From Parcubacteria group bacterium GW2011_GWC1_45_13 (GTDB lineage: Bacteria; Patescibacteriota; Minisyncoccia; UBA11713; 2-01-FULL-45-33), in contig LCKG01000004.1 of NCBI GenBank assembly GCA_001001285.1, positions 1,957 to 65,956 on the forward strand: a stretch of 64,000 bases of DNA, written 5' to 3'. The stretch's first letter is position 1; every line of letters begins with the position of its first letter. The position numbers and the translations under genes are program-made. Below are positions 4,830-59,626 of the stretch, in pieces. The notes below the pieces were generated by a model. It saw only the letters and a list, made by a program, of their open reading frames with translations, was not told the origin of the DNA and searched no databases.

Positions 4830-5553
4830 AAAAATAATTTTCTTCGGCGGTTTTAAGGTGTTTTCTGAAATATATCTTAATGCTCTCAAAAGCGCCGGTT
4901 TTGAAATTGTCTTAGAAGCCAAAAACGCGGATCTGGGCATTATTGCTTACTACGGAAAAATTATACCGAAAGCTGTTTTGGAGCTACCTAAATATGGGTT
5001 TTTGAACGCCCACCCGTCGCTGCTCCCCCGCTGGCGGGGGCCGTCTCCAATCCAGGCGGCTATTTTGGCCGGAGACAAAACCACCGGTGTGACTATACAT
5101 ATGGCAACGGAGGAGCCTGACGCCGGGCCGATTTTAGCCCAGAAAGAAATTCCGATAGAGCCCGAGGATACCTGTTTTAGCTTAACCGGGAAGCTCGCTA
5201 ATGAAGGCGCGGCGCTTTTAATCCCGACTATTGAAAAATGGCTTTTGGGTAAAATTGCTCCAAAAGAGCAGGACCACTCCAAGGCCACTTTCACTAGATT
5301 GATTAAAAAAGAAGATGGGCTGATTGATTGGACCAAGGGCGCCGAATATATAGAAAGAATGGTGCGGGCGTATAACCAGTGGCCCGGGACATTCATAAAA
5401 ATGAAAAATGGGAAGATTTTAAAAATAAAAAAGGCAGCGGTAATAAATGGTGCTTTAAAACTTTTAATAGTCCAGCCGGAGGGGAAAAAAGAAATGGCGT
5501 ATGACGCTTTTGTGAGAGGACACAGGGAGATTATAGGAGAGCCGCTCCGATAG
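4822..5553 (+). CDS. fmt: methionyl-tRNA formyltransferase
   Basis: NAHPSLLPRWRGPSPIQAAILAGDKTTGVTIH formyltransferase core. Follows def as in the canonical def-fmt operon. Confidence 0.85.
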   Translation: MPKKIIFFGGFKVFSEIYLNALKSAGFEIVLEAKNADLGIIAYYGKIIPKAVLELPKYGFLNAHPSLLPRWRGPSPIQAAILAGDKTTGVTIHMATEEPDAGPILAQKEIPIEPEDTCFSLTGKLANEGAALLIPTIEKWLLGKIAPKEQDHSKATFTRLIKKEDGLIDWTKGAEYIERMVRAYNQWPGTFIKMKNGKILKIKKAAVINGALKLLIVQPEGKKEMAYDAFVRGHREIIGEPLR

Positions 5554-6226
5554 CAGCGGCGTTTTTGCCGAATTTCGATTTTCTTACAGGCAATTTTACC
5601 GCTTTTTGAAACTCAGCCACAAAATTTTGCCTTCCGGTTACTCCCCCGCCAACTATTATTAGTTTAGGGTTGTATTCTTTAAAGCGCCATTTCAAATGTT
5701 GGACTAAAAAAATGGCGAGGGCGTAGTTATTTTTTGAATCGCGTAATTTCTGATATTCTTTTTCCCAGCTCTCTGGGTACTCAAATTTTTTAATTTTTAA
5801 AATTTTGCCGGCTCTGCTGATCGCGCGCCCTATGCCCGTCCCCAGCGTAATAAATAAAACGGCCTGCCCGTCTAAATGCGTTAGCCCTGCCTTGCCAGTA
5901 GGCAGGTTTTGGTGGGCTCTCGCGAAACACCTAGCATCGTTATCAAGCCGCAACTTAGACGTCGGACGTCTAAGTTGCGAAATATCAAAATTTTTAAGAT
6001 ATTTAATGTTGGGGCAAAATAGAATTTTATTTCCTGAAACTGCGCCGGGCACTCCGATGCCGATTTTCTTTGCGCGGTAACTTTTTAAAATATTTTCCAA
6101 AAGCTTTTTAAAAGCGGCTAAATTTTTAGGCGTTTTAAACTCGCGAGCTTTTACGGCCCGCTTGCTGTCCCACAAAACCGCGCGTATTTTTGTGCCTCCA
6201 ATGTCTATACCTAACATAATATCCAT
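5531..6226 (-). CDS. ROK / BadF-type sugar kinase (putative glucokinase)
   Basis: N-terminal MLGIDIGGTKIR actin-fold ATPase phosphate-1 motif and GIGVPG. Carries in-frame palindromic insertions (see findings). Confidence 0.6.
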   Translation of the reverse strand: MDIMLGIDIGGTKIRAVLWDSKRAVKAREFKTPKNLAAFKKLLENILKSYRAKKIGIGVPGAVSGNKILFCPNIKYLKNFDISQLRRPTSKLRLDNDARCFARAHQNLPTGKAGLTHLDGQAVLFITLGTGIGRAISRAGKILKIKKFEYPESWEKEYQKLRDSKNNYALAIFLVQHLKWRFKEYNPKLIIVGGGVTGRQNFVAEFQKAVKLPVRKSKFGKNAAAIGAALL

Positions 6227-6231
6227 CCTTA

Positions 6232-6266
6232 GGCTTGTGTCCTACCGCTAGACGACCCCTCACAAC
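6232..6266 (-). pseudogene. truncated tRNA-like fragment (5' half: acceptor + D-arm), duplicate of adjacent tRNA-Gln
   Basis: tgtgtcctaccgCtagacgaCcccc matches the tRNA-Gln 5' half (tgtgtcctaccgTtagacgaTcccc). No anticodon or T-arm follows. Abuts the ROK start codon. Confidence 0.35.
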
Positions 6267-6271
6267 CATAA

Positions 6272-6342
6272 CTGGGGGACCTGGATTCGAACCAGGATAC
6301 CATCCTCCAAAGGGATGTGTCCTACCGTTAGACGATCCCCCA
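6272..6342 (-). tRNA. tRNA-Gln (anticodon UUG)
   Basis: Cloverleaf folds: acceptor UGGGGGA/UCCCCCA with U1-A72 and G73 (Gln identity), D-stem GUCU/GGAC, anticodon loop CUUUGGA, T-arm CCUGG-UUCGAAU-CCAGG. Confidence 0.8.
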
Positions 6343-6454
6343 GCTATGGTTGCGAATTTTCGATGCTTCTTATAATTTTTTCTTTATTGTATTATTTTAT
6401 CCACGTTTCCGTTTTTTGGCAATTGCGATTTATGATGTTCAGTTTCTTTGAAAC

Positions 6455-11374: not shown

Positions 11375-12910
11375 ATGAAAAATTCTGCTTACTGGCTGAT
11401 TGTAATTATTTTAATTGCCGTTTTTTTGAGATTTTGGGATTTAAAAAATACTCCGCCCGGGTTTTGGTTGGATGAGGCTATGAACGGAACCAATGCTATC
11501 CAGGCTATAGAGATTAGTGGCTGGAAGGTGTTTTACCAGGAAAATTTCGGGAGAGAGGGATTATTTATAAATATCCAAGCGTTATTTGTAAAAACTTTTG
11601 GCCACGAGCCATGGGTTTTGCGCTTGCCTTCGGTGATTTTCGGCTTATTAACGGTCTTGGGACTTTATTTTTTGACAAAAGAACTGTTTTCTGGGCGTGT
11701 TTCGCTTTTCGCGTCTTTTTTTCTGGCAACTTCGTTCTGGCACATTAATTTTTCACGAATCGGGTTCCGCGCGATAATGGCTCCGTTTTTTTTGGTTTGG
11801 GCGTTTTATTTTTTATTTTTAGGAATGCGGAAGCAAAAAGAATGGATTTTCACCTCAGCCGGATTTACTTTCGGCCTCGGCTTTCACACTTATATTGCCT
11901 ATCGCGCCGCGCCCATAATCGCGTTTTTGCCTTTTTGGAGTTTTTATAAATCATGGCGAGAGGACACCGGACGTCCACTTGGACGTCCGGTGTCCAAGCA
12001 CTGCGCTCCATGCTTAATTGGCCTTTTTATTTTCATGGCGTTTTTAGCGGCATTGCCATTGCTCTGGTATTACGCCCAAAACCCTGCTGATTTCCTAGGC
12101 AGGACCTCGGCAATATCAGTATTTAAATCTTCAAATCCGCTTGGCCAATTTTCAGAAAATTTGGTAAAAACTTTGGGAATGTTTAATTTCGCCGGAGATT
12201 TCAATTGGCGGCACAATTTAGCAGGTTCGCCCCAGCTTTGGTGGCCCGTGGGAATTTTATTTTTGATAGGGATTTTTGGAGCATTGCGCTCGAGTGTTTT
12301 CCCGCGCAATGCTTATAATTTTATTTTGCTGTGGTTCATTGTCATGATTCTTCCCGTCGCGTTTTCAAATGAATCTCTGCCTCACGCGCTTCGCGCCATT
12401 GTTTTAATACCGCCAGCTATGATTTTCGCCGCTTTGGGGCTGGACTGGCTTTGGAGAAATGTCAGGCCGCGGCTTAGGATTTTTATTTATATTTTTTTAG
12501 TCACCGCCGCGATTCAGGCATACAGCCAGTATTTTCTCCGCTGGGCGCCAAACTTTAATGTTTATCAAGCCTTCCATACTGACATTACGGAAAAGGCGCG
12601 TTGGCTCAACAAACAACCAAATGATATTAAAAAATACGTCATAACTGACGCGGTTGATCGGGTAGACACAACCGGAACGCCCATGTCATTTCAGCCAATA
12701 ATTTTTATTACTGATACTGCCACGCCGGCAAAACAGACAAGGAAAAACATCTATTATGCTTCTCTGCAAAATATTTCTTCAGCAAATTGTTCCCAAAAAT
12801 GCCTTTTCGTGCCCGTTGAATACCAACCTTCCATTTTTAAAATTATCAAACAAAAAATCCCGGGTTTGCGTCTAGACGCCTCTTCGGGATTTGTGGTTTT
12901 GAAAAAATGA
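11375..12910 (+). CDS. GT39-family (ArnT/PMT-like) membrane glycosyltransferase
   Basis: 511 aa with more than 10 TM helices and dolichyl-phosphate-mannose / ArnT-like N-terminal architecture. TATAAT at 11362 just upstream. Contains an in-frame palindromic element encoding EDTGRPLGRPVSK. Confidence 0.65.
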   Translation: MKNSAYWLIVIILIAVFLRFWDLKNTPPGFWLDEAMNGTNAIQAIEISGWKVFYQENFGREGLFINIQALFVKTFGHEPWVLRLPSVIFGLLTVLGLYFLTKELFSGRVSLFASFFLATSFWHINFSRIGFRAIMAPFFLVWAFYFLFLGMRKQKEWIFTSAGFTFGLGFHTYIAYRAAPIIAFLPFWSFYKSWREDTGRPLGRPVSKHCAPCLIGLFIFMAFLAALPLLWYYAQNPADFLGRTSAISVFKSSNPLGQFSENLVKTLGMFNFAGDFNWRHNLAGSPQLWWPVGILFLIGIFGALRSSVFPRNAYNFILLWFIVMILPVAFSNESLPHALRAIVLIPPAMIFAALGLDWLWRNVRPRLRIFIYIFLVTAAIQAYSQYFLRWAPNFNVYQAFHTDITEKARWLNKQPNDIKKYVITDAVDRVDTTGTPMSFQPIIFITDTATPAKQTRKNIYYASLQNISSANCSQKCLFVPVEYQPSIFKIIKQKIPGLRLDASSGFVVLKK

Positions 12911-16738: not shown

Positions 16739-18016
16739 CTATTTTTTATTCTTCCAATATTCGTCCTGTCTGGCAAGTATATTTTGGGCTTCTTCAGGAT
16801 GAGCCATAAGTTCTTCTGTAATCAGCTCCATGCGCATGGACTGCGATCCTTTAACCAAAATTAGGTCGCCTTCTCGAATGATTGATTTTAAATGAGACGC
16901 AGCTTCTTGGGAAGTTGAAAAATTTATTACTTTAGACTTATTCATTTCTTGAGCGATAGCTTCTTCTGCGGCGAAGCGCGAGCGCGGACCGACTGCGACA
17001 AAATAATCCGCGATTTTAGCGATTTTTTTCCCTGCTGCTTGATGGGCCAAGATAGTAAATTTACCGATTTCAAGCATATCGCCGAAAGCGACAATTTTTC
17101 TCTCCGCATCTAATTCTTTTAACGTATCCAGAGCTGCCTCCGTGGCCAAGGGAGAGGCGTTATATGAATCGTCAAGAATCAGACTATTTTTAATTCCCGG
17201 AAGTAGTCTCAATCTGCCGGGAGGCGCGTGATACCTTGAAAGTGCCTCTGAAATTTCTATAAGGTTCATCTCAAAAATTATTCCTACCGCCGTCGCGGAC
17301 AACGCGGCGTACACAAAATGTTTTCCAAAAACATTTTTTAAGCGCACAGGCACCGAAGAGCCCTTATAGTCCATTTTAAAAGAAATGCCTTCTTTGGAAA
17401 TTTTATAATTGGAAGCCAAAATATCCGCGCCGTTTCCGAAACCGAAACCAATCACACTTGCGTTGGTTTTTAATTTTTCTCCCAAAGCAGACATGCTCCA
17501 AACTGTTTCATCGTCAAAATTCAAAATAGCCCAGTTGTCGGATGATAGATTTTTTACAAGCTTGGATTTTTCGCGTGTTACTTCCTCCGGCCCAGAAAAA
17601 AATTCAACATGCACTGGAATCTCTCCCACAGCCGTAACTATTCCGATGTCCGGACGCACAATTTTAAGTAATTTATCAAAATCGCGCGGCCGGTCAACCC
17701 CCATCTCCAAAACCAGTATTTTTGGGAAGTTCTTATTAAAAATTTCTTCAAACCCATAAATTATATTTTTAATCCATCCTATCGGACTATTCCAAGCGGT
17801 TTTTAGACCTAAAACGGCCAAAGCCATGCCCAATTCGCTGTTGTAGCTTTTAATACTTTCTCTGATATTAAACCTGCTTTCCAAGACCGCGGCCACAGCT
17901 TCTTTAGCGGACGATTTGCCAACGGACCCGGTTATGCCTATGATTCGAGGCTGGTAGCGTCTTAGCGCAATTTTAGCTTCTAAAGCGAGAATTTTTGTTA
18001 CAATTGTTTTTATCAT
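16739..18016 (-). CDS. murF: UDP-N-acetylmuramoyl-tripeptide--D-alanyl-D-alanine ligase
   Basis: Mur-ligase P-loop GITGSVGKSS. Position between ftsI and the end of the dcw cluster. Confidence 0.8.
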   Translation of the reverse strand: MIKTIVTKILALEAKIALRRYQPRIIGITGSVGKSSAKEAVAAVLESRFNIRESIKSYNSELGMALAVLGLKTAWNSPIGWIKNIIYGFEEIFNKNFPKILVLEMGVDRPRDFDKLLKIVRPDIGIVTAVGEIPVHVEFFSGPEEVTREKSKLVKNLSSDNWAILNFDDETVWSMSALGEKLKTNASVIGFGFGNGADILASNYKISKEGISFKMDYKGSSVPVRLKNVFGKHFVYAALSATAVGIIFEMNLIEISEALSRYHAPPGRLRLLPGIKNSLILDDSYNASPLATEAALDTLKELDAERKIVAFGDMLEIGKFTILAHQAAGKKIAKIADYFVAVGPRSRFAAEEAIAQEMNKSKVINFSTSQEAASHLKSIIREGDLILVKGSQSMRMELITEELMAHPEEAQNILARQDEYWKNKK

Positions 18017-26191: not shown

Positions 26192-27212
26192 TAAAAACTT
26201 CGCGAAAACTGTCTATATCCTCCAGAATTATTCCGGTTCCCCGCACCACAGCCGTCAAAGGATCTTCCGCCAAATAAACCGGCATTTTTGTTTCGCGCTC
26301 CAAGAGCTTGTCCAAACCCCGAATCAAGCTCCCTCCGCCCACCAATAATATTCCGCGATGCATGATATCAGCCACCAGCTCCGGCGGAGTATCTTCTATG
26401 GTGCCCTTTACTCCGTCCGCGATTAAGCGGATAGATTTGGCTAAAGCAGCCCGCACATCGCTGTCCGTTACCAAGACTTCCCTCGGCAGTCCAGTTACCA
26501 AATCCCTTCCGCGCAAGGTTCCCTCAAAAATTTCGTTCGTTTTCCAAACCGACCCGATTGAAATTTTTATATCTTCTGCGGTGCGCTCGCCTATCAAAAG
26601 TTTAAATTCGTCTCTGGCGTAATTGGCAATGTCCTCGTTGAATTTGTCGCCAGCAACCCGTAAATTGCGGGACGCAACGATGCCGCCTAAAGAAATCACA
26701 GCAATATCCGTCGTTCCGCCGCCTGCGTCTATCACCATACTCCCTACCGCTTCCTGAATCGGGAGCCTCACGCCGATAGCCGCGGCCATCGGCTCCTCCA
26801 CCAAATAAACCTCTCTGGCTCCGGCGTTGTGAGCCGCATCCCGCACGGCTCGACGCTCAACTTCCGTGATGCTGGAGGGAATGCCAATCACCACGCGCGG
26901 GCGAGCGAAAAGCTGGGCGGAAGAGCTATGCACTTTTTTTATGAAATAATTGAGCATCTCCGCCGTAACCTCAAAATCCGAGATCACTCCCTCAACCAAG
27001 GGGCGCAAAGCAATAATATGACCTGGCGTCCGCCCCAGCATTTTTTTGGCATCATGGCCAATGGCCACCACCTGCCCGGTTTTTTGATTAATGGCCACTA
27101 CCGAAGGCTCATTGATTAAAATGCCCTCGCCGCGCACGTAAACAAGTGTATTGGCGGTGCCCAAATCAATCCCCAGATCTTTTGAAAAGATGCCAAAAAT
27201 TTTATTTATCAT
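26160..27212 (-). CDS. mreB: rod-shape actin homolog MreB
   Basis: LGIDLGTANTLVYV phosphate-1 motif and MreB-length actin fold. Confidence 0.9.
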   Translation of the reverse strand: MINKIFGIFSKDLGIDLGTANTLVYVRGEGILINEPSVVAINQKTGQVVAIGHDAKKMLGRTPGHIIALRPLVEGVISDFEVTAEMLNYFIKKVHSSSAQLFARPRVVIGIPSSITEVERRAVRDAAHNAGAREVYLVEEPMAAAIGVRLPIQEAVGSMVIDAGGGTTDIAVISLGGIVASRNLRVAGDKFNEDIANYARDEFKLLIGERTAEDIKISIGSVWKTNEIFEGTLRGRDLVTGLPREVLVTDSDVRAALAKSIRLIADGVKGTIEDTPPELVADIMHRGILLVGGGSLIRGLDKLLERETKMPVYLAEDPLTAVVRGTGIILEDIDSFREVFIEDDYDLPPK

Positions 27213-28449
27213 ATTTTTCTAAAAATGTTTTTATGGTTTCCAGCCGAATCGTTTCGGAATTTCTTTCCTTTAGTTCCACACTGTCTTTTTCCAAAGTCTT
27301 CTCGCTCACGACCATCCTTAGTGGAATCCCCAAAAGATCGGCGTCGGCAAACTTTTCTCCGGCCATCTTTTCTGCGCGATCATCGTATAACACTTCCCTG
27401 CTTCTTGCAGTAAGGTCGACATAAAGTTTTTCACCGGCTTTTTTTACTTTGGGAGATTCGCCGACCGCTATTAAATGAATAGTAAAAGGCGCAACCCCCT
27501 TCGGCCAAATAAGCCCTTTTTCATCGCTCATAACTTCGGCAATGATTCCCATAACTCGGGATGTTCCCAAACCATAACATCCTGCTGAAACCAGTTTCTC
27601 TTTTCCGGCTTCATCTTTAAAATTTAGATTAAAATCATTAGCGTATTTTTCTTTCAACGGGAAAATATTCCCCGCCTCTATAGCTTTGATTTCTTTAGTA
27701 ATCCCGCTGCAATTTGAGCATTTGTCGGATTTGGCGTCTGCCTTGCTTGCTACTTCCTTATTTACCGCCAAATCGCATTTTTCGCAAAGAAAAATAATGT
27801 CCTCGCCGGCATCGGAAACAACTTGAAATTCCATAGAAAGTTCCGAAAAAGTTCCGCCGGAAGCGATAGTGGGGATGACGTTTAAACCTAATTTTTTAAA
27901 TACAGTGATATAGGTTTCTTTCATCACTTCATAATATTTATCGCGGTCTTTATCATTCGCATGGAAACTATAAAGGTCTTTCATACGGAATTCTCGCGCG
28001 CGAAGAAGTCCGGCCTTGGGTCTTTTTTCGTCCCTAAATTTTGTTTGAATTTGATAAATATAAACCGGCAGGTCGCGGTATGAACTGATGTGTTTTTTAA
28101 GAAGCGCGTAAAGAATTTCTTCGTGGGTCGGGCCCAAGGCGTATTCCCCACCGAAGTTGCTTTTAGTTTTAAAAAGCGCGTCAAACGCTTGCCATCTGCC
28201 GGTAATCTCCCAATTTTCTTTAGGATGAAGGCTAGGCATTAAAATTTCAACACCGCCAGCGCCGTTCATCTCTTCTCGGACAATGTTTTCTATCTTATTT
28301 AAAACCCGGAGGCCCAAAGGCAAAAAAGTGTAAACTCCGGCCGAGAGCTTCTGAATAAAACCTGCCTGCTCCAAAAGTTTGGCGTTTTTTGACTCTTCGT
28401 CTTTGGGCGGGGTTCGTTGGGTTTTGGCGAATAATTCCGAAAGCCGCAT
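27202..28449 (-). CDS. proS: prolyl-tRNA synthetase (short form lacking the INS editing domain)
   Basis: N-terminus MRLSELFAKTQRTPPKD...AGFIQKLSAGVYTFLPLG is canonical ProRS. 415 aa. Carries a Cys cluster CEKCD...CSNCSG. Confidence 0.85.
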   Translation of the reverse strand: MRLSELFAKTQRTPPKDEESKNAKLLEQAGFIQKLSAGVYTFLPLGLRVLNKIENIVREEMNGAGGVEILMPSLHPKENWEITGRWQAFDALFKTKSNFGGEYALGPTHEEILYALLKKHISSYRDLPVYIYQIQTKFRDEKRPKAGLLRAREFRMKDLYSFHANDKDRDKYYEVMKETYITVFKKLGLNVIPTIASGGTFSELSMEFQVVSDAGEDIIFLCEKCDLAVNKEVASKADAKSDKCSNCSGITKEIKAIEAGNIFPLKEKYANDFNLNFKDEAGKEKLVSAGCYGLGTSRVMGIIAEVMSDEKGLIWPKGVAPFTIHLIAVGESPKVKKAGEKLYVDLTARSREVLYDDRAEKMAGEKFADADLLGIPLRMVVSEKTLEKDSVELKERNSETIRLETIKTFLEKYDK

Positions 28450-28513
28450 AGGAATATGTTAACTTAATTAACGCAAAAAGAAAACCCGTCTTTAGGCGAC
28501 GGGCTCAAAGGAA

Positions 28514-28849
28514 TTAATGAATATTTGATTGACGAAGACGGCTTGCTTTTTCCGGATCAATGCCGAGAATTTGATATTTTTCCCTTGCCTTTGATTCAGT
28601 TATGTCCCCTTTCTCTAAAACCTTTCTATCCAACGCTCCTAAAATAGCTATGCGTGCTTTTAAAAAATCGCCATCGTCAAGATAAATAGCTACATTATCT
28701 TGCCCCTCATCGGTCATTAATTCCGTCGCTAGTTTTAGAAGTTGTTGCTTATATTCTTCATCCCTCCTCAAATCCGTCCCTTCTTTCATATTTATCTCCT
28801 CCTTCATGTATTTATTATAAAAACTAGCATGTCTAAAAAACTTTGGCAA
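28514..28849 (-). CDS. hypothetical acidic protein
   Basis: 111-aa ORF with no recognisable motif. Confidence 0.35.
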   Translation of the reverse strand: MPKFFRHASFYNKYMKEEINMKEGTDLRRDEEYKQQLLKLATELMTDEGQDNVAIYLDDGDFLKARIAILGALDRKVLEKGDITESKAREKYQILGIDPEKASRLRQSNIH

Positions 28850-28866
28850 TTTGGTGATTGATTACC

Positions 28867-29578
28867 CCACTTGGACGTCCGACGTCCAAGTGGCTATTAA
28901 TTTTCTAAAGATAACAGAACCTCTAGCTCTTTTAATAATTCTTTTCTTTGTAAAATATTTTTTAATGACTCTTCTCCAAATGTCTTATATTCTTTTTTGT
29001 TTTTAAATTGCTTAAGAATAATATTTTTATTACAAAGGTTTTCTTCACTTGAACTAATAAATTCTTCCCAACTAGAATAGGCGCCCCCCTCTTTTAATCT
29101 ATGTGCGCGGTTATTTAAATTTACATAAACGCTTGCATGCAATAAATATTCATTGGAATCAATATGACTAGATTTAAATTTGCCCTGAAAAAGTACGCCG
29201 CTCCTTTTATATTTATTATTAAAATACTTTGTATAGCCACCATTTAATCTTTTCATAAACTCGCTTAATCCACCGTCTGTTTTTGGCTCCAAAATCATAT
29301 GATAATGATTTGGATTAAGGCAATAGCAAATGATATTCACCAACTTGGACGTCTGACGTCCAAGTCGGGGTTTATCGAATGAATTTTCGTAAATACTGCC
29401 TATTGGTTCTAGAGAATTAAATTCCTTCATACTTTGAAGAAACCTCTTGAAATCATAATCGTTGTTAAATACAATACGCTTATCAGTGCCGCGGTTATAG
29501 ATATGATAAAATTCACCAATCATGAAAGCGGTTTTTCTCATGATACTATATTAGCACTTGGACGTCCGACGTCCAAGT
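28867..29578 (-). mobile_element. REP-RAYT unit: IS200-like HuH tyrosine transposase flanked by REP palindromes
   Basis: Palindromes ccacttggacgtccgacgtccaagtgg (28867-28893) and acttggacgtccgacgtccaagt (29556-29578) flank the transposase ORF. A third copy (29343-29365) lies inside it. Confidence 0.65.
28897..29541 (-). CDS. IS200/IS605-family Y1 HuH transposase (REP-associated tyrosine transposase-like)
   Basis: N-terminal YHIYNRG..R..IF strand, HuH motif NPNHYHMIL, downstream LFQGKF..SHID...EYLLHASVYVNLN resembling the RAYT WQ..F.DH signature. Confidence 0.7.
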   Translation of the reverse strand: MRKTAFMIGEFYHIYNRGTDKRIVFNNDYDFKRFLQSMKEFNSLEPIGSIYENSFDKPRLGRQTSKLVNIICYCLNPNHYHMILEPKTDGGLSEFMKRLNGGYTKYFNNKYKRSGVLFQGKFKSSHIDSNEYLLHASVYVNLNNRAHRLKEGGAYSSWEEFISSSEENLCNKNIILKQFKNKKEYKTFGEESLKNILQRKELLKELEVLLSLEN

Positions 29579-29595
29579 TGGGAAGTGGGTATAGA

Positions 29596-30657
29596 CTAAA
29601 AAACTTTGGCAATGTCGTGGTAAGTTACTACCAACATAAGAATAATTAAAATCGCGAGGCCTAAACTGTGCACCAGGGCGCTGGCCTTGGGAGAAATCCT
29701 GCGGCCAAGCAAACTTTCAATCAAAAGAAAAAATAATCTCCCACCATCCAAGCCTGGGAACGGTAAAATATTGATTAAAGAAAGATTAATGGATAAAACG
29801 GCAATTAATATAAGAAGGGCGCCAAAGCCAAGATTGATAGCCGAAGAAGTGATGTTAAAAATTCCCACAGGACCAGCGACTTCAATCGGTGGGGTTTCTC
29901 TTTCAAACAAGCTTTGTACAAGATTCCAAAATCCCAAAACCGTTCCTTTTAAAATTTCCCAAGTGAACCGGGCGCCGTCTATCGGAGCCAGATACCACGA
30001 AGTTTTTTTTACGCGCGTAAGACCGAGAGCAATCCCCAACGGCCCCTCCCCTTCCGGCGGATTTTGGCGAGAAAGCGCGCTGATCTCAATAGAATTTTTA
30101 CCTCGGATCATTGTGATTGAGATTGTTTTCCCTTGGTTTTGTTTAATAAGATTTTGCACGTCTTTTATTGTTTGAAAACCCGGAATCTGGTCTCCTGGCA
30201 TAATGCCGGCGCGGGACGCAGGCGAATTCGGCACCACATCCATAATGGTTATTTTAGCGTCGGGATAAATATTGCTTTCCTCTTCGGAGACGACTTGCGG
30301 AACGCCCAAACTGCTTACCAAAGTAAGCGCAAGAAAAGCTAAAATAATATTCGCTAATACGCCGCTGGCCAGTATCACGGCCCTTTTCGGGACAGGTTTT
30401 GACCCAAAACTTTCCGGCTGAGAAACTTCGTCACCCTCTTCGCCAAAAATTTTCACAAATCCGCCAAAAGGCAGAAGATTTAAAGAATAAAGAGTATCAT
30501 GCTTATCGCGCCATAAACTCAAAATCCGAGGAGGGATGCCGAATCCAAATTCTTCAACTTTAACGCCAAAGAACCGCGCCGTAAAAAAATGTCCGGCCTC
30601 GTGGGAGAGTACTAGGATTATAAGAATAGTCAGAAAAATTAAAAAAGTTAAAAGCAC
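29596..30657 (-). CDS. rseP: site-2 protease RseP (M50 zinc metalloprotease with PDZ)
   Basis: HEAGHFFTARFFGV HExxH in the first TM helix; PDZ segment; LDGG motif (PGLDGGRLF). Confidence 0.85.
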   Translation of the reverse strand: MLLTFLIFLTILIILVLSHEAGHFFTARFFGVKVEEFGFGIPPRILSLWRDKHDTLYSLNLLPFGGFVKIFGEEGDEVSQPESFGSKPVPKRAVILASGVLANIILAFLALTLVSSLGVPQVVSEEESNIYPDAKITIMDVVPNSPASRAGIMPGDQIPGFQTIKDVQNLIKQNQGKTISITMIRGKNSIEISALSRQNPPEGEGPLGIALGLTRVKKTSWYLAPIDGARFTWEILKGTVLGFWNLVQSLFERETPPIEVAGPVGIFNITSSAINLGFGALLILIAVLSINLSLINILPFPGLDGGRLFFLLIESLLGRRISPKASALVHSLGLAILIILMLVVTYHDIAKVF

Positions 30658-30661
30658 GGGT

Positions 30662-31213
30662 TTATATTTCCATTAATTCTTTTTCTTTTTTTGCGGCGAG
30701 TTCCGCGATTTTTTTATTTGTTTCTTCGGCAATTTTTTCCATTTTTTCTTTTTGGGAAAATTTTTGATTTTCCGATATGATTTTGGTGCGCTCTTCTTCC
30801 TGAATCGTTTTCCAAATTTCATCCCGGCGCTTTCTTGCCGATATCCGCGCCTCCTCCGCTTTTTGGCCTACAATTTTGGCAAATTGTTTCCTGCGCTCCT
30901 CTGTAAGCGCCGGAAAAATCGCTCTGACCTGATCCGTTTCAGAAATTATAGAAAGCCCCAGATTGGCTCTGGCCAGCGCCTGTTCAATGGCCGGAAGCAG
31001 ATTTTTGTCCCAGGGGCGGATAAGCACGCTTTTGGGGTCGGGCGAAGACAAAGCCGCCGCGTGCGCCAAAGGGGTGAGAACGCCGTAGGATTCAACCATA
31101 ATCCCCTCCAAAACAGAGGAAGTTGCCCGTCCGGTGCGAATTTTTTTAAGATCTTCCGCGAACCATAAAATTATTTTTTGGAATTCTTTTTCTTCTTTTG
31201 AAAAATCTATCAT
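30662..31213 (-). CDS. frr: ribosome recycling factor
   Basis: 183 aa; RRF arm and coiled-coil pattern. Confidence 0.85.
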   Translation of the reverse strand: MIDFSKEEKEFQKIILWFAEDLKKIRTGRATSSVLEGIMVESYGVLTPLAHAAALSSPDPKSVLIRPWDKNLLPAIEQALARANLGLSIISETDQVRAIFPALTEERRKQFAKIVGQKAEEARISARKRRDEIWKTIQEEERTKIISENQKFSQKEKMEKIAEETNKKIAELAAKKEKELMEI

Positions 31214-31848
31214 GATATTAAATTTAAATACTCTCCCAAAAGCCTTTTGTTGACGGTCGGATCGTTTATAATTTTATGAATTTCCAGTATTTTTTCGAAT
31301 TTTAAAATATTGGCATGATTCGGATTCTTTCTTGCGGAAATTTCAGCTCCCGCAAGCGATTTAATTAATTTTGTTTTTAGCTCATCTTCTGACTTTACCG
31401 TCTCCGGCTCCGTAGTCCAGAATCTAAAAACGGAAAAACGCGATTTTATCGTGCTAAGCAAAAAAGATTTATTTTTAGTTGTCGCTATAATAATACTATT
31501 TATTGAAGGCTCCTCCAAGAGCTTAAGCATGGCGGGAGACGCTTCGCGGCTCAAGTTTTCAATATTTTTTATCAAAAAAACATTTTTTCTGCCGGAAACG
31601 GCGCTCTGCGAACTTTTTATTTTAAGCATCCTCACTTCTTCTATAGTTATCGGGTCTTCTTCAGTTTTAAAAAAATCTGGGCTGTGCGCGTAATTTTCCC
31701 CCAAAAAATAAGTCGCAAGCAAATGAACCGCCTCATCCTTCGCTTTTTCATCGTTCCCGGAAAATAAATACGCCTGCGGCAACATTCCACACTCAATTTG
31801 GCGTTTTAATAGTGATAGTGCTGAATTTTGTTGCAATTTTTCGCTCAT
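31210..31848 (-). CDS. holB: DNA polymerase III delta'-like clamp-loader subunit
   Basis: LPQAYLFSGNDEKAKDEAVHLLATYFLG (AAA+ P-loop-degenerate delta' signature). Confidence 0.55.
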   Translation of the reverse strand: MSEKLQQNSALSLLKRQIECGMLPQAYLFSGNDEKAKDEAVHLLATYFLGENYAHSPDFFKTEEDPITIEEVRMLKIKSSQSAVSGRKNVFLIKNIENLSREASPAMLKLLEEPSINSIIIATTKNKSFLLSTIKSRFSVFRFWTTEPETVKSEDELKTKLIKSLAGAEISARKNPNHANILKFEKILEIHKIINDPTVNKRLLGEYLNLIS

Positions 31849-54219: not shown

Positions 54220-54404
54220 ATATCCAAAATAGCATGATGCCTAAAAAGCTGTCAATATAAAAAAATTGACTATCCTGGATAGTCAATTAAACTTGTTCGG
54301 ACTATATAATCATAAGAAAAAATGGTGGGCTACTAAAGTTTAAACTTGTTCGCCCATTATTTAATTTATGTTCAACGTATAGTCTCTGAGGATTCTTCAA
54401 AATT

Positions 54405-59551: not shown

Positions 59552-59626
59552 AGGGCTATTTTAGCATTAAAATCATTGCTTTAGCAATGATCCCGACGTA
59601 CGTCGGGATGAAAGCTAAAGCTTTCA

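Follow-up and report, generated by a model that had tools for sequence, protein, structure and literature searches.

A Y1/HUH transposase gene with in-frame and flanking palindromes in a Parcubacteria genome: a probable REP/RAYT-type unit

The DNA analysed here, referred to as the window, is a stretch of 64,000 nucleotides (nt) from Parcubacteria group bacterium GW2011_GWC1_45_13 (contig LCKG01000004.1, positions 1,957 to 65,956). It contains a gene for a 214-amino acid (aa) transposase of the Y1/HUH type, which is accompanied by copies of a short perfect palindrome (Table 1). An earlier note on this DNA had described the 214-aa open reading frame (ORF), with its YHIYNRG segment, HUH motif and LFQGKF..SH segment, as a transposase of the kind associated with repetitive extragenic palindromes (REPs), namely a REP-associated tyrosine transposase (RAYT), and had placed a palindrome on both of its flanks. 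The ORF, these motifs and both flanking copies are borne out. The palindrome is the 23-nt sequence ACTTGGACGTCCGACGTCCAAGT, of the form ACTTGGACGTC-N-GACGTCCAAGT, and exact copies lie before the start codon and after the stop codon, the latter carrying a CC...GG extension. A third copy, termed IN60, is located within the ORF itself. This copy was not mentioned in the earlier note and is the most unusual feature of the locus.

Table 1. Positions of the transposase gene, the palindromes and the D2 direct repeat in the window
Feature	Position	Strand	Remarks
Y1/HUH (RAYT-like) transposase gene, 214 aa	28897..29541	-	ORF, Pfam Y1_Tnp, alignment, AlphaFold model, fold match
Upstream palindrome (UP), ACTTGGACGTC-C-GACGTCCAAGT	29556..29578		exact 23-mer; ends 14 nt before ATG
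Internal in-frame palindrome (IN60)	29343..29365		centre base T (+ strand), the sole difference from ACTTGGACGTCCGACGTCCAAGT
Downstream palindrome (DN), CC-ACTTGGACGTC-C-GACGTCCAAGT-GG	28867..28893		exact 23-mer at 28869-28891; 3 nt past stop codon; 13-bp stem
D2 copy 1, last 33 nt of rseP-like (Peptidase_M50) gene	29596..29628	-	encodes ..VTYHDIAKVF*
D2 copy 2, decayed duplicate of the rseP 3'-end	28833..28865	-	reads VINHQIAKVF*; adjoins DN
Solo variant copy, CGCA-ACTTAGACGTC-G-GACGTCTAAGT-TGCG (CGCA-ACTTAGACGTCGGACGTCTAAGT-TGCG)	5949..5979		in frame, ROK-family kinase ORF 5531..6226(-)
Inverted doublet, GGACACCGGACGTCC-ACTT-GGACGTCCGGTGTCC-AAGC, 16-bp stem	11962..11999		in frame, PMT_2 glycosyltransferase ORF 11375..12910(+)

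The assignment of the protein was established from its sequence and predicted structure. YHIYNRG occupies residues 12-18, H79-Y-H81 constitutes the HUH motif and the segment LFQGKFKSSH is also present. A score of 35.8 bits was obtained over residues 65-140 against the Pfam family Y1_Tnp (PF01797; gathering cutoff 23), in line with the family assignment made earlier, and most homologues of the protein carry the same domain in precomputed annotation. Alignment with 22 homologues revealed that H79, H81, Q119, G120, F122, K123 and Y139 are invariant, with a Q119-G120-x-F122-K123 block and the conserved tyrosine lying in S-V-Y139-V-N-L-N-N. The “Y..NP” segment that had been read from the sequence previously is absent; the only “NP” occurs in CLNPNHYH, ahead of the HUH motif. 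The AlphaFold (AF2) model of the protein (pLDDT 80, pTM 0.79) comprises a strand at residues 11-17, a helix at 28-41, a long loop at 42-67, two strands at 68-75 and 80-86, the latter with the HUH motif, a helix at 91-111, a strand at 121-127, a helix at 130-141 that bears Y139, a loop at ∼147-157 and a long C-terminal helix at 182-213. The order of elements is thus β-α-β-β(HUH)-α-β-α(Y), and the model places the invariant HUH motif on one strand and the invariant tyrosine on a later helix, as in Y1/HUH enzymes. When the model was compared with the Protein Data Bank (PDB) using Foldseek, the top match was 4ER8, the Escherichia coli RAYT with its REP hairpin (E 6.6e-6), followed by IS608 TnpA (E 4e-4) and ISDra2 TnpA (range to 5e-3). 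The 214-aa protein is a Y1/HUH transposase with the TnpA/RAYT fold.

A k-mer-seeded search of a 90%-identity cluster database returned 3145 homologues of ∼210-230 aa. Those with a name are nearly all from Patescibacteria (Giovannonibacteria, Wolfebacteria), and some carry the Joint Genome Institute label “REP element-mobilizing transposase RayT.” In an exhaustive search of 50%-identity representatives, 237 clusters passed E ≤ 1e-30 and 4756 passed E ≤ 1e-10. The transposase gene is therefore not rare in the candidate phyla radiation, and with >3000 homologues the idea that such a gene is unusual in Patescibacteria no longer holds. A second, more distant Y1 subfamily (∼36% identity; L038:6393-7055) was also encountered. 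It is tied to another palindrome family, TGTCAAACAC-N3-GTGTTTGACA, copies of which lie at L038:4737-4759, L038:6334-6360 and L020:7573-7609, the L020 copy being inside a 1098-aa ORF.

As single-stranded DNA, the three palindromes at the locus are predicted to form hairpins of -10.5 kcal/mol (UP; z score -5.4), -12.5 kcal/mol (IN60) and -14.2 kcal/mol (DN; z score -8.2). A search of the window with up to three mismatches found the palindrome at five places, compared with none in 100 shuffles, and raising the limit to six mismatches added no further degenerate copy in the 64 kb. In the transposase frame, IN60 is translated as L60-G-R-Q-T-S-K66, a segment of the predicted surface loop at residues 42-67, and the consensus LGRxTSKLV of the closest homologues is itself the translation of the palindrome. 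No family was matched by an Rfam search of positions 27000-31500 at a permissive threshold, and a promoter and terminator scan returned nothing beyond the level of shuffled sequence.

To place these copies in the context of the family, hairpins (stem ≥9 bp, ≤1 mismatch) were recorded for 85 homologous genes from a sample of 79 homologue loci in species-representative genomes and two closer relatives from assemblies. The 79 loci are nearly all Patescibacteria/Parcubacteria by name, with a few records of metagenome-assembled genomes (MAGs) labelled otherwise. Four stereotyped sites emerged. A hairpin was observed upstream of the ATG in 67 of the 85 genes and directly after the stop codon in as many; within the coding sequence, 49 genes have one at ∼aa 60 (codons aligned to window residues 55-72) and 45 at ∼aa 150 (codons aligned to residues 143-160), both of these sites being loops in the AF2 model. 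All four sites are filled in 22 genes and none in 5. In the window, three are filled: before the ATG, at ∼aa 60 and after the stop. Family-wide, the palindrome can be written as ACTT(G/A)G, 5 bp, 1 to 3 nt, 5 bp, C(C/T)AAGT. Its outer stem is conserved (ACTTGG in 132 hairpins and ACTTAG in 38, partnered by CCAAGT or CTAAGT), and the inner stem of 4-5 bp varies among genes, with 34 distinct cores. The hairpins of one gene resemble one another: two hairpins taken from the same gene agree in the 4-nt inner core in 74% of cases, versus 5.2% for hairpins taken from different genes. The hairpin type shared by two genes also follows the identity of their Y1 proteins, being common to 53% of gene pairs at 70-80% identity, 10% at 60-70% and 3% at 50-60%.

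At stem pairs 7-10 of 100 distinct 23-mers, all four Watson-Crick types are used and G-U or U-G wobble accounts for 0-4% of cells; given that this set had been chosen as hairpins, it was used only for the variety of pair types and the scarcity of wobble, not for the percentage paired. Such Watson-Crick variety together with scarce wobble pairs points to a palindrome maintained at the level of DNA, not an RNA helix. The loop triplet also occurs in both orientations at different sites within one gene. Among the 120 closest proteins, 100 heptapeptides could be encoded by such a palindrome, and 95 of them lie at one or other of the two loop sites. The encoded peptides vary freely across the family (GRPTS, GGSAS, GSLAS, GHPMS, GNRVS and others) while the arms stay complementary, and it is therefore the nucleotide palindrome that is conserved and not a peptide motif. 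In four distant relatives (P0361, P0341, P0296 and P0280), the aa-60 loop is longer by 20-50 residues and holds repeated short motifs (e.g. KSDF/PKSDFG, RPDLG/PRSGLG) resembling what other hairpin families would encode; these expanded loops are possibly nested or tandem palindrome copies.

The earlier note had connected the gene with palindromes dispersed elsewhere in the window. Two variant copies of this kind are indeed present, but they are the only ones, and both lie inside coding sequence (Table 1). The first, in a host identified by Pfam as ROK, is read as Q-L-R-R-P-T-S-K-L and has a predicted hairpin energy of -16.2 kcal/mol; the QLRRPTSKL peptide is common only to the closest ROK homologues. 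The second, in a host identified as PMT_2, is an inverted doublet read as D-T-G-R-P-L-G-R-P-V-S-K (DTGRPLGRPVSK), with a hairpin of -20.2 kcal/mol. Tight inverted doublets, which had been suggested as a sign of REPINs, thus exist.

Metagenome contigs were scanned for ACTTRGACGTCNGACGTCYAAGT, giving at least 143 exact copies at at least 116 loci. Among the 143 matches listed, to which the following counts refer, 36 are at Y1 genes, 73 lie inside stop-free ORFs of ≥100 aa and 34 lie elsewhere, so that 73 of the 107 solo copies are within ORFs. In-ORF copies outside Y1 genes are read in three frames, as L-(G/R)-R-x-T-S-K (51 copies), L-D-V-(G/R)-R-P-S (17 copies) and T-W-T-S-D-V-Q (13 copies). 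The hosts identified by Pfam include TsaD, KsgA (two sites), LepA, the NAD-dependent DNA ligase LigA, ArgRS, GluRS, a class-I aminoacyl-tRNA synthetase, UvrC, methylpurine glycosylase (MPG), ROK, GT4 and giant surface proteins. No copy of the palindrome was detected in viral contigs. In 1.26 Mb of sequence around Y1 genes, 149 palindromes of this class were counted, 136 belonging to Y1 genes and the remaining 13 solo; where a solo copy lies near a Y1 gene, it matches the inner core of that local gene in 6 of 9 cases. By extrapolation from these contigs to whole genomes, the repeat would be of low copy number, with approximately one solo copy per 30-100 kb and tens per Mb at most. Across 111 distinct copies, the sole feature of the flanks was a C before and a G after the palindrome, a symmetric extension; a 5' tag of the GTAG type was absent.

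Comparison of orthologous host genes gave some insight into how the copies arise and change. Palindromes are found in frame in conserved genes and are absent from some orthologues, as is the case for intragenic repeats such as Rickettsia palindromic elements (RPEs) and intragenic REPs. Only two clean gains of length were found, one of 39 nt in an unannotated 260-aa ORF (L096 versus L085) and a net gain of 21 nt for a singlet at TsaD site B (L108 versus L103), and both are multiples of three. Elsewhere, the presence of the palindrome makes hardly any difference to loop length, as at ROK (∼+1 aa), at KsgA compared with L079 and L046, and at the Y1 site at ∼aa 150. Given these near-equal lengths, a plain “insert and keep” process is insufficient, and replacement or in-place decay must also occur. 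Plain insertion of ∼27 nt, considered as a general rule, was dropped on the basis of the ROK alignment and the comparisons with and without the palindrome.

A doublet architecture, core(15)-ACTT-core(15)-AAGT, recurs in metagenome TsaD, KsgA, GluRS and class-I aminoacyl-tRNA synthetase genes and has the same layout as the PMT_2 doublet of the window. At TsaD site A, the doublets of orthologues with 69-82% identity occupy one register but differ in inner stem: ACGTC in L103, AAGC in L108 and a hybrid in L085. Likewise, the same-register doublets at the KsgA site have ACGTC in L179 versus CGGTT in L139. Such changes, to another widespread type at one fixed position, are compatible either with conversion by the type that is active in the genome concerned or with its renewed insertion. 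The hybrid doublets, namely those of the window and of L085 TsaD, retain one long palindrome of 15-16 bp and not two small hairpins, which fits palindrome self-correction. Apex integration of a circularised hairpin was not proposed as the origin of the hybrids, since the linker is 4 nt compared with an expected 8 and self-correction is simpler. In the TsaD ORF of L132 (- strand; protein ..SNLSPSPLPLRRGGGKGVGF..), site A is occupied by an unrelated G/C-rich palindrome, CCCCCTCCCCTT-ACG-AAGGGGAGGGGG, where others carry ACTTGG doublets, and this loop may be a general palindrome hotspot.

The gene order frr, rseP (Peptidase_M50), Y1 is kept in the window and at loci L080 and L001, the Y1 proteins of which are 80% and 74% identical to that of the window, respectively. 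A conserved leader (GCTAAxAT..) lies between hairpin and ATG at the frr-rseP-Y1 loci. When L001:7593-12049 was compared with window positions 27202-31213, the Y1 proteins were 74% identical, yet the identities of the neighbouring proteins were 47% (RseP), 54% (ProS) and 62% (Frr). At L054, rseP and proS adjoin and the Y1 gene sits elsewhere. A MAG can hold several members of the transposase family, and in L007 a stretch of 7 kb contains two of them. For seven paralogue pairs, each from a single MAG or locus, protein identity is 52-74% and the hairpin types differ; near-identical copies of the kind expected for IS200/IS605 insertion sequences were not found among these seven pairs. The conserved position after rseP and the paralogues at 52-74% identity argue for RAYT-like behaviour and against an active insertion sequence (IS). 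As judged from these sequences, this is a resident, divergent and vertically inherited gene, present in a single copy per repeat type, as RAYT genes are.

A direct repeat, D2, brackets a 763-nt unit at the locus. Its two 33-nt copies are 82% identical, and both end in TTAC on the + strand; the TTAC of copy 2 precedes the DN hairpin. D2 is present in L081, an independent assembly of the same species, and is absent from the orthologous loci L080 and L001. The repeat points toward an IS. At another locus, L024, a complete Y1 gene (1412-2089) has a 35-nt palindrome as its upstream hairpin, and the N-terminal 54 aa of a different gene of the Y1 family (1207-1401; ..NEFYHVYNRGNNKSKIF..) break off exactly there. 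Recombination or insertion at the hairpin is suggested by this single, anecdotal case.

The combination of gene, palindrome and inheritance is probably best explained by a functional enzyme-palindrome system, a Patescibacteria version of the REP/RAYT unit, or “REPtron.” The systems with which it was compared are E. coli TnpA-REP (4ER8) and the Pseudomonas RAYTs with REPINs, as covered in Nunvar 2010 (PMC2817692), Bertels and Rainey 2011 (PMC3116915) and Di Nocera 2013 (PMC3733652). Like these, the locus has a Y1/HUH gene flanked by a cognate hairpin repeat and a predicted fold closest to 4ER8; the gene also holds its place in the chromosome, its paralogues have diverged and differ in repeat type, and tight inverted doublets occur. 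The gene-flanking repeat is, moreover, also found elsewhere, both in the window (5949-5979 and 11962-11999) and as metagenome solos. In these respects, the REP/RAYT reading of the earlier note stands.

In other respects, the locus departs from that reading. REPs of RAYT systems are abundant (tens to hundreds per genome) and extragenic; in the window, there are two copies not associated with the gene in 64 kb, and the family estimate of at most tens per Mb falls short of hundreds. The majority of solo copies lie within ORFs, in contrast to classical REPs, which are excluded from genes. The repeat lacks a GTAG tag and is a perfect, symmetric palindrome, the enzyme's ORF itself contains in-frame copies at two fixed loop positions, and the protein would have a helical C-terminal extension of ∼65 aa according to the model. 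No description of REP copies inside a RAYT ORF was found in the RAYT literature searched. Nor was a report of REP/RAYT in Patescibacteria found in the literature searched, where absence is not proof.

Several points weigh against a REP/RAYT-type system. The score of the 214-aa protein against the NCBIfam RAYT equivalog, NF047646, is 29.2 bits, well under the cutoff of 80, and the RAYT profile comparison suggested earlier therefore came out negative. Sequence searches of the PDB, with the single protein and with a 22-sequence profile, matched no Y1 protein. The palindrome is symmetric and has no guide or tag, and the strand- and site-specific cleavage of IS608 or of the E. coli RAYT is therefore not simply transferable to it. 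Perfect complementarity could be maintained without an enzyme, through palindrome self-correction by template switching, and the near-equal loop lengths and the choice of the covariation set as hairpins, both described above, count on the same side. Finally, the link between enzyme and palindrome is one of position and co-variation only, the enzyme activity is putative, and the co-occurrence of gene and palindrome across genomes is an extrapolation from the sequences sampled.

By analogy with IS608 TnpA and the E. coli RAYT, a REP/RAYT-type enzyme of this kind would recognise the hairpin formed by either strand of single-stranded DNA via the conserved outer stem ACTTGG/CCAAGT. Cutting and rejoining at or near the hairpin would spread copies and keep those of a genome uniform. 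Copies in the enzyme's own ORF might persist given that the gene is the nearest target and that its two loops may tolerate any peptide. The units would survive in coding DNA because they are stop-free in the frames used and because 21 or 39 nt were added in the two clean cases. A more specific form of the proposal, which we regard as tentative and doubtful, is in-place cassette rewriting, in which the Y1 protein would cut at the ACTTGG/CCAAGT feet and swap the inner part between copies, with all copies of a genome tracking the type of one paralogue. Conceivably, although this is put forward with the same reserve, rewriting would cover both the loops of the enzyme's own gene and the fixed sites in essential genes, e.g. 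TsaD and KsgA. If true, it would describe a coding-compatible mobile palindrome, in units of 21 or 39 nt, that overwrites or extends protein surface loops across Patescibacteria.

The alternative that survives best, although it is unlikely, is that the palindromes are structural or regulatory DNA or RNA elements (transcription barriers, mRNA-stability hairpins or protein-binding sites) spread by template switching or short-patch gene conversion, with the Y1 protein a neighbour or a binder that no longer moves them. Templated replacement gives near-equal loop lengths such as those at ROK, KsgA and the Y1 site at ∼aa 150, and the 15-16-bp palindrome of the hybrid doublets is what self-correction would be expected to leave. 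Sites before the ATG and after the stop would also suit expression control, and the DN copy has a terminator-like score on the + strand. However, the 0-4% of wobble cells and the presence of both loop orientations argue against a role in RNA only, the sense strand lacks a T tract after the copies and no Rfam family was matched. The palindrome is tightly tied, family-wide, to an enzyme family whose relatives act on such hairpins. Furthermore, inner stems are common to the copies of a gene and to nearby solos, so that a sequence-specific homogenising agent is needed.

Less probable still, and in our view improbable, is that the locus is an autonomous, currently mobile IS200/IS605 element in which the 763-nt unit bounded by D2 is the transposon, the outer hairpins are its ends and the protein is its TnpA. 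As in the TnpA proteins of IS608, ISDra2 and IS200, a Y1_Tnp domain with the HUH motif and a single tyrosine is combined with hairpins near both ends of the gene, and the Foldseek matches to IS608 and ISDra2 TnpA (E 4e-4 to 5e-3) were noted above. The 33-nt flanking repeats both end in TTAC, the target of IS608, and one adjoins a hairpin. That MAGs contain several members of the family, with the L007 pair no more than 7 kb apart, and that rseP and proS adjoin without the gene at L054 would also be accounted for. By contrast, copies in the same genome that are only 52-74% identical and have different hairpins are not recent copies, and the position after rseP is shared by three lineages with Y1 proteins 74-80% identical. 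The ends are identical perfect palindromes and not the distinct imperfect left-end and right-end hairpins, with guide sequences, of such elements, and there is no TnpB. IS200/IS605 elements insert 3' of a fixed tetra- or pentanucleotide and, as is established for the family, produce no target duplication. The D2 repeat is absent from L080 and L001. There was also no match in viral contigs. Lastly, that the internal palindrome is a by-product of a selected peptide motif, LGRxTSKL, with the other in-gene copies coincidental, is extremely improbable: LGRxTSKLV is conserved in the closest homologues, but family peptides differ freely while the arms stay complementary, the identical 23-mer lies untranslated at both ends of the gene, three different frames are used in other genes and zero copies are expected by chance.

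For a REP/RAYT-type system with intragenic copies, the nearest precedents for the repeat itself are RPEs and intragenic REPs, which, as described in PMC3733652, lie in frame inside conserved genes, including those for DNA repair and translation. Here too, palindromes are translated as extra or altered loop peptides. The CGTC-type repeats, for which no associated transposase was found by Di Nocera et al. (PMC3733652), differ from the present palindromes, which are tied to a cognate Y1 gene. The present units, which measure 23 nt as a palindrome and 38-39 nt as a doublet, are also much smaller than RPEs, and several of them occur without any change in loop length. RPE-1 has a length of ∼100-150 bp.

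How REP-type repeats spread and what RAYTs do for their hosts are questions still unsettled. The putative substrate described here, a perfect palindrome of 23 nt in which the outer stem is conserved and the inner one varies, is unusually simple and easily tracked. Because copies are few, genomes tiny and sites fixed, with some inside the enzyme's own gene, comparative genomics and in vitro work with short oligonucleotides could measure directly how the copies turn over, how they are homogenised and how targets are chosen. A palindrome that is mobile or propagates itself while being translated in core housekeeping proteins of Patescibacteria would also bear on annotation, alignments, phylogenies and the tolerance of selfish DNA in streamlined genomes.

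Two further observations concern repeats elsewhere in the window. Perfect palindromes unlike the ACTTGG family occur at 54264-54288, 59590-59609 and 17315-17337; they comprise AATTGACTATCC-T-GGATAGTCAATT, ATCCCGACGTACGTCGGGAT and an AT-rich one. Near the start of the ROK gene, a sequence of ∼27 nt (tgtgtcctaccgctagacgaccc) at 6236-6262 repeats positions 6313-6340 of the tRNA-Gln gene (6271-6343, - strand) and looks like a partial tRNA duplication.

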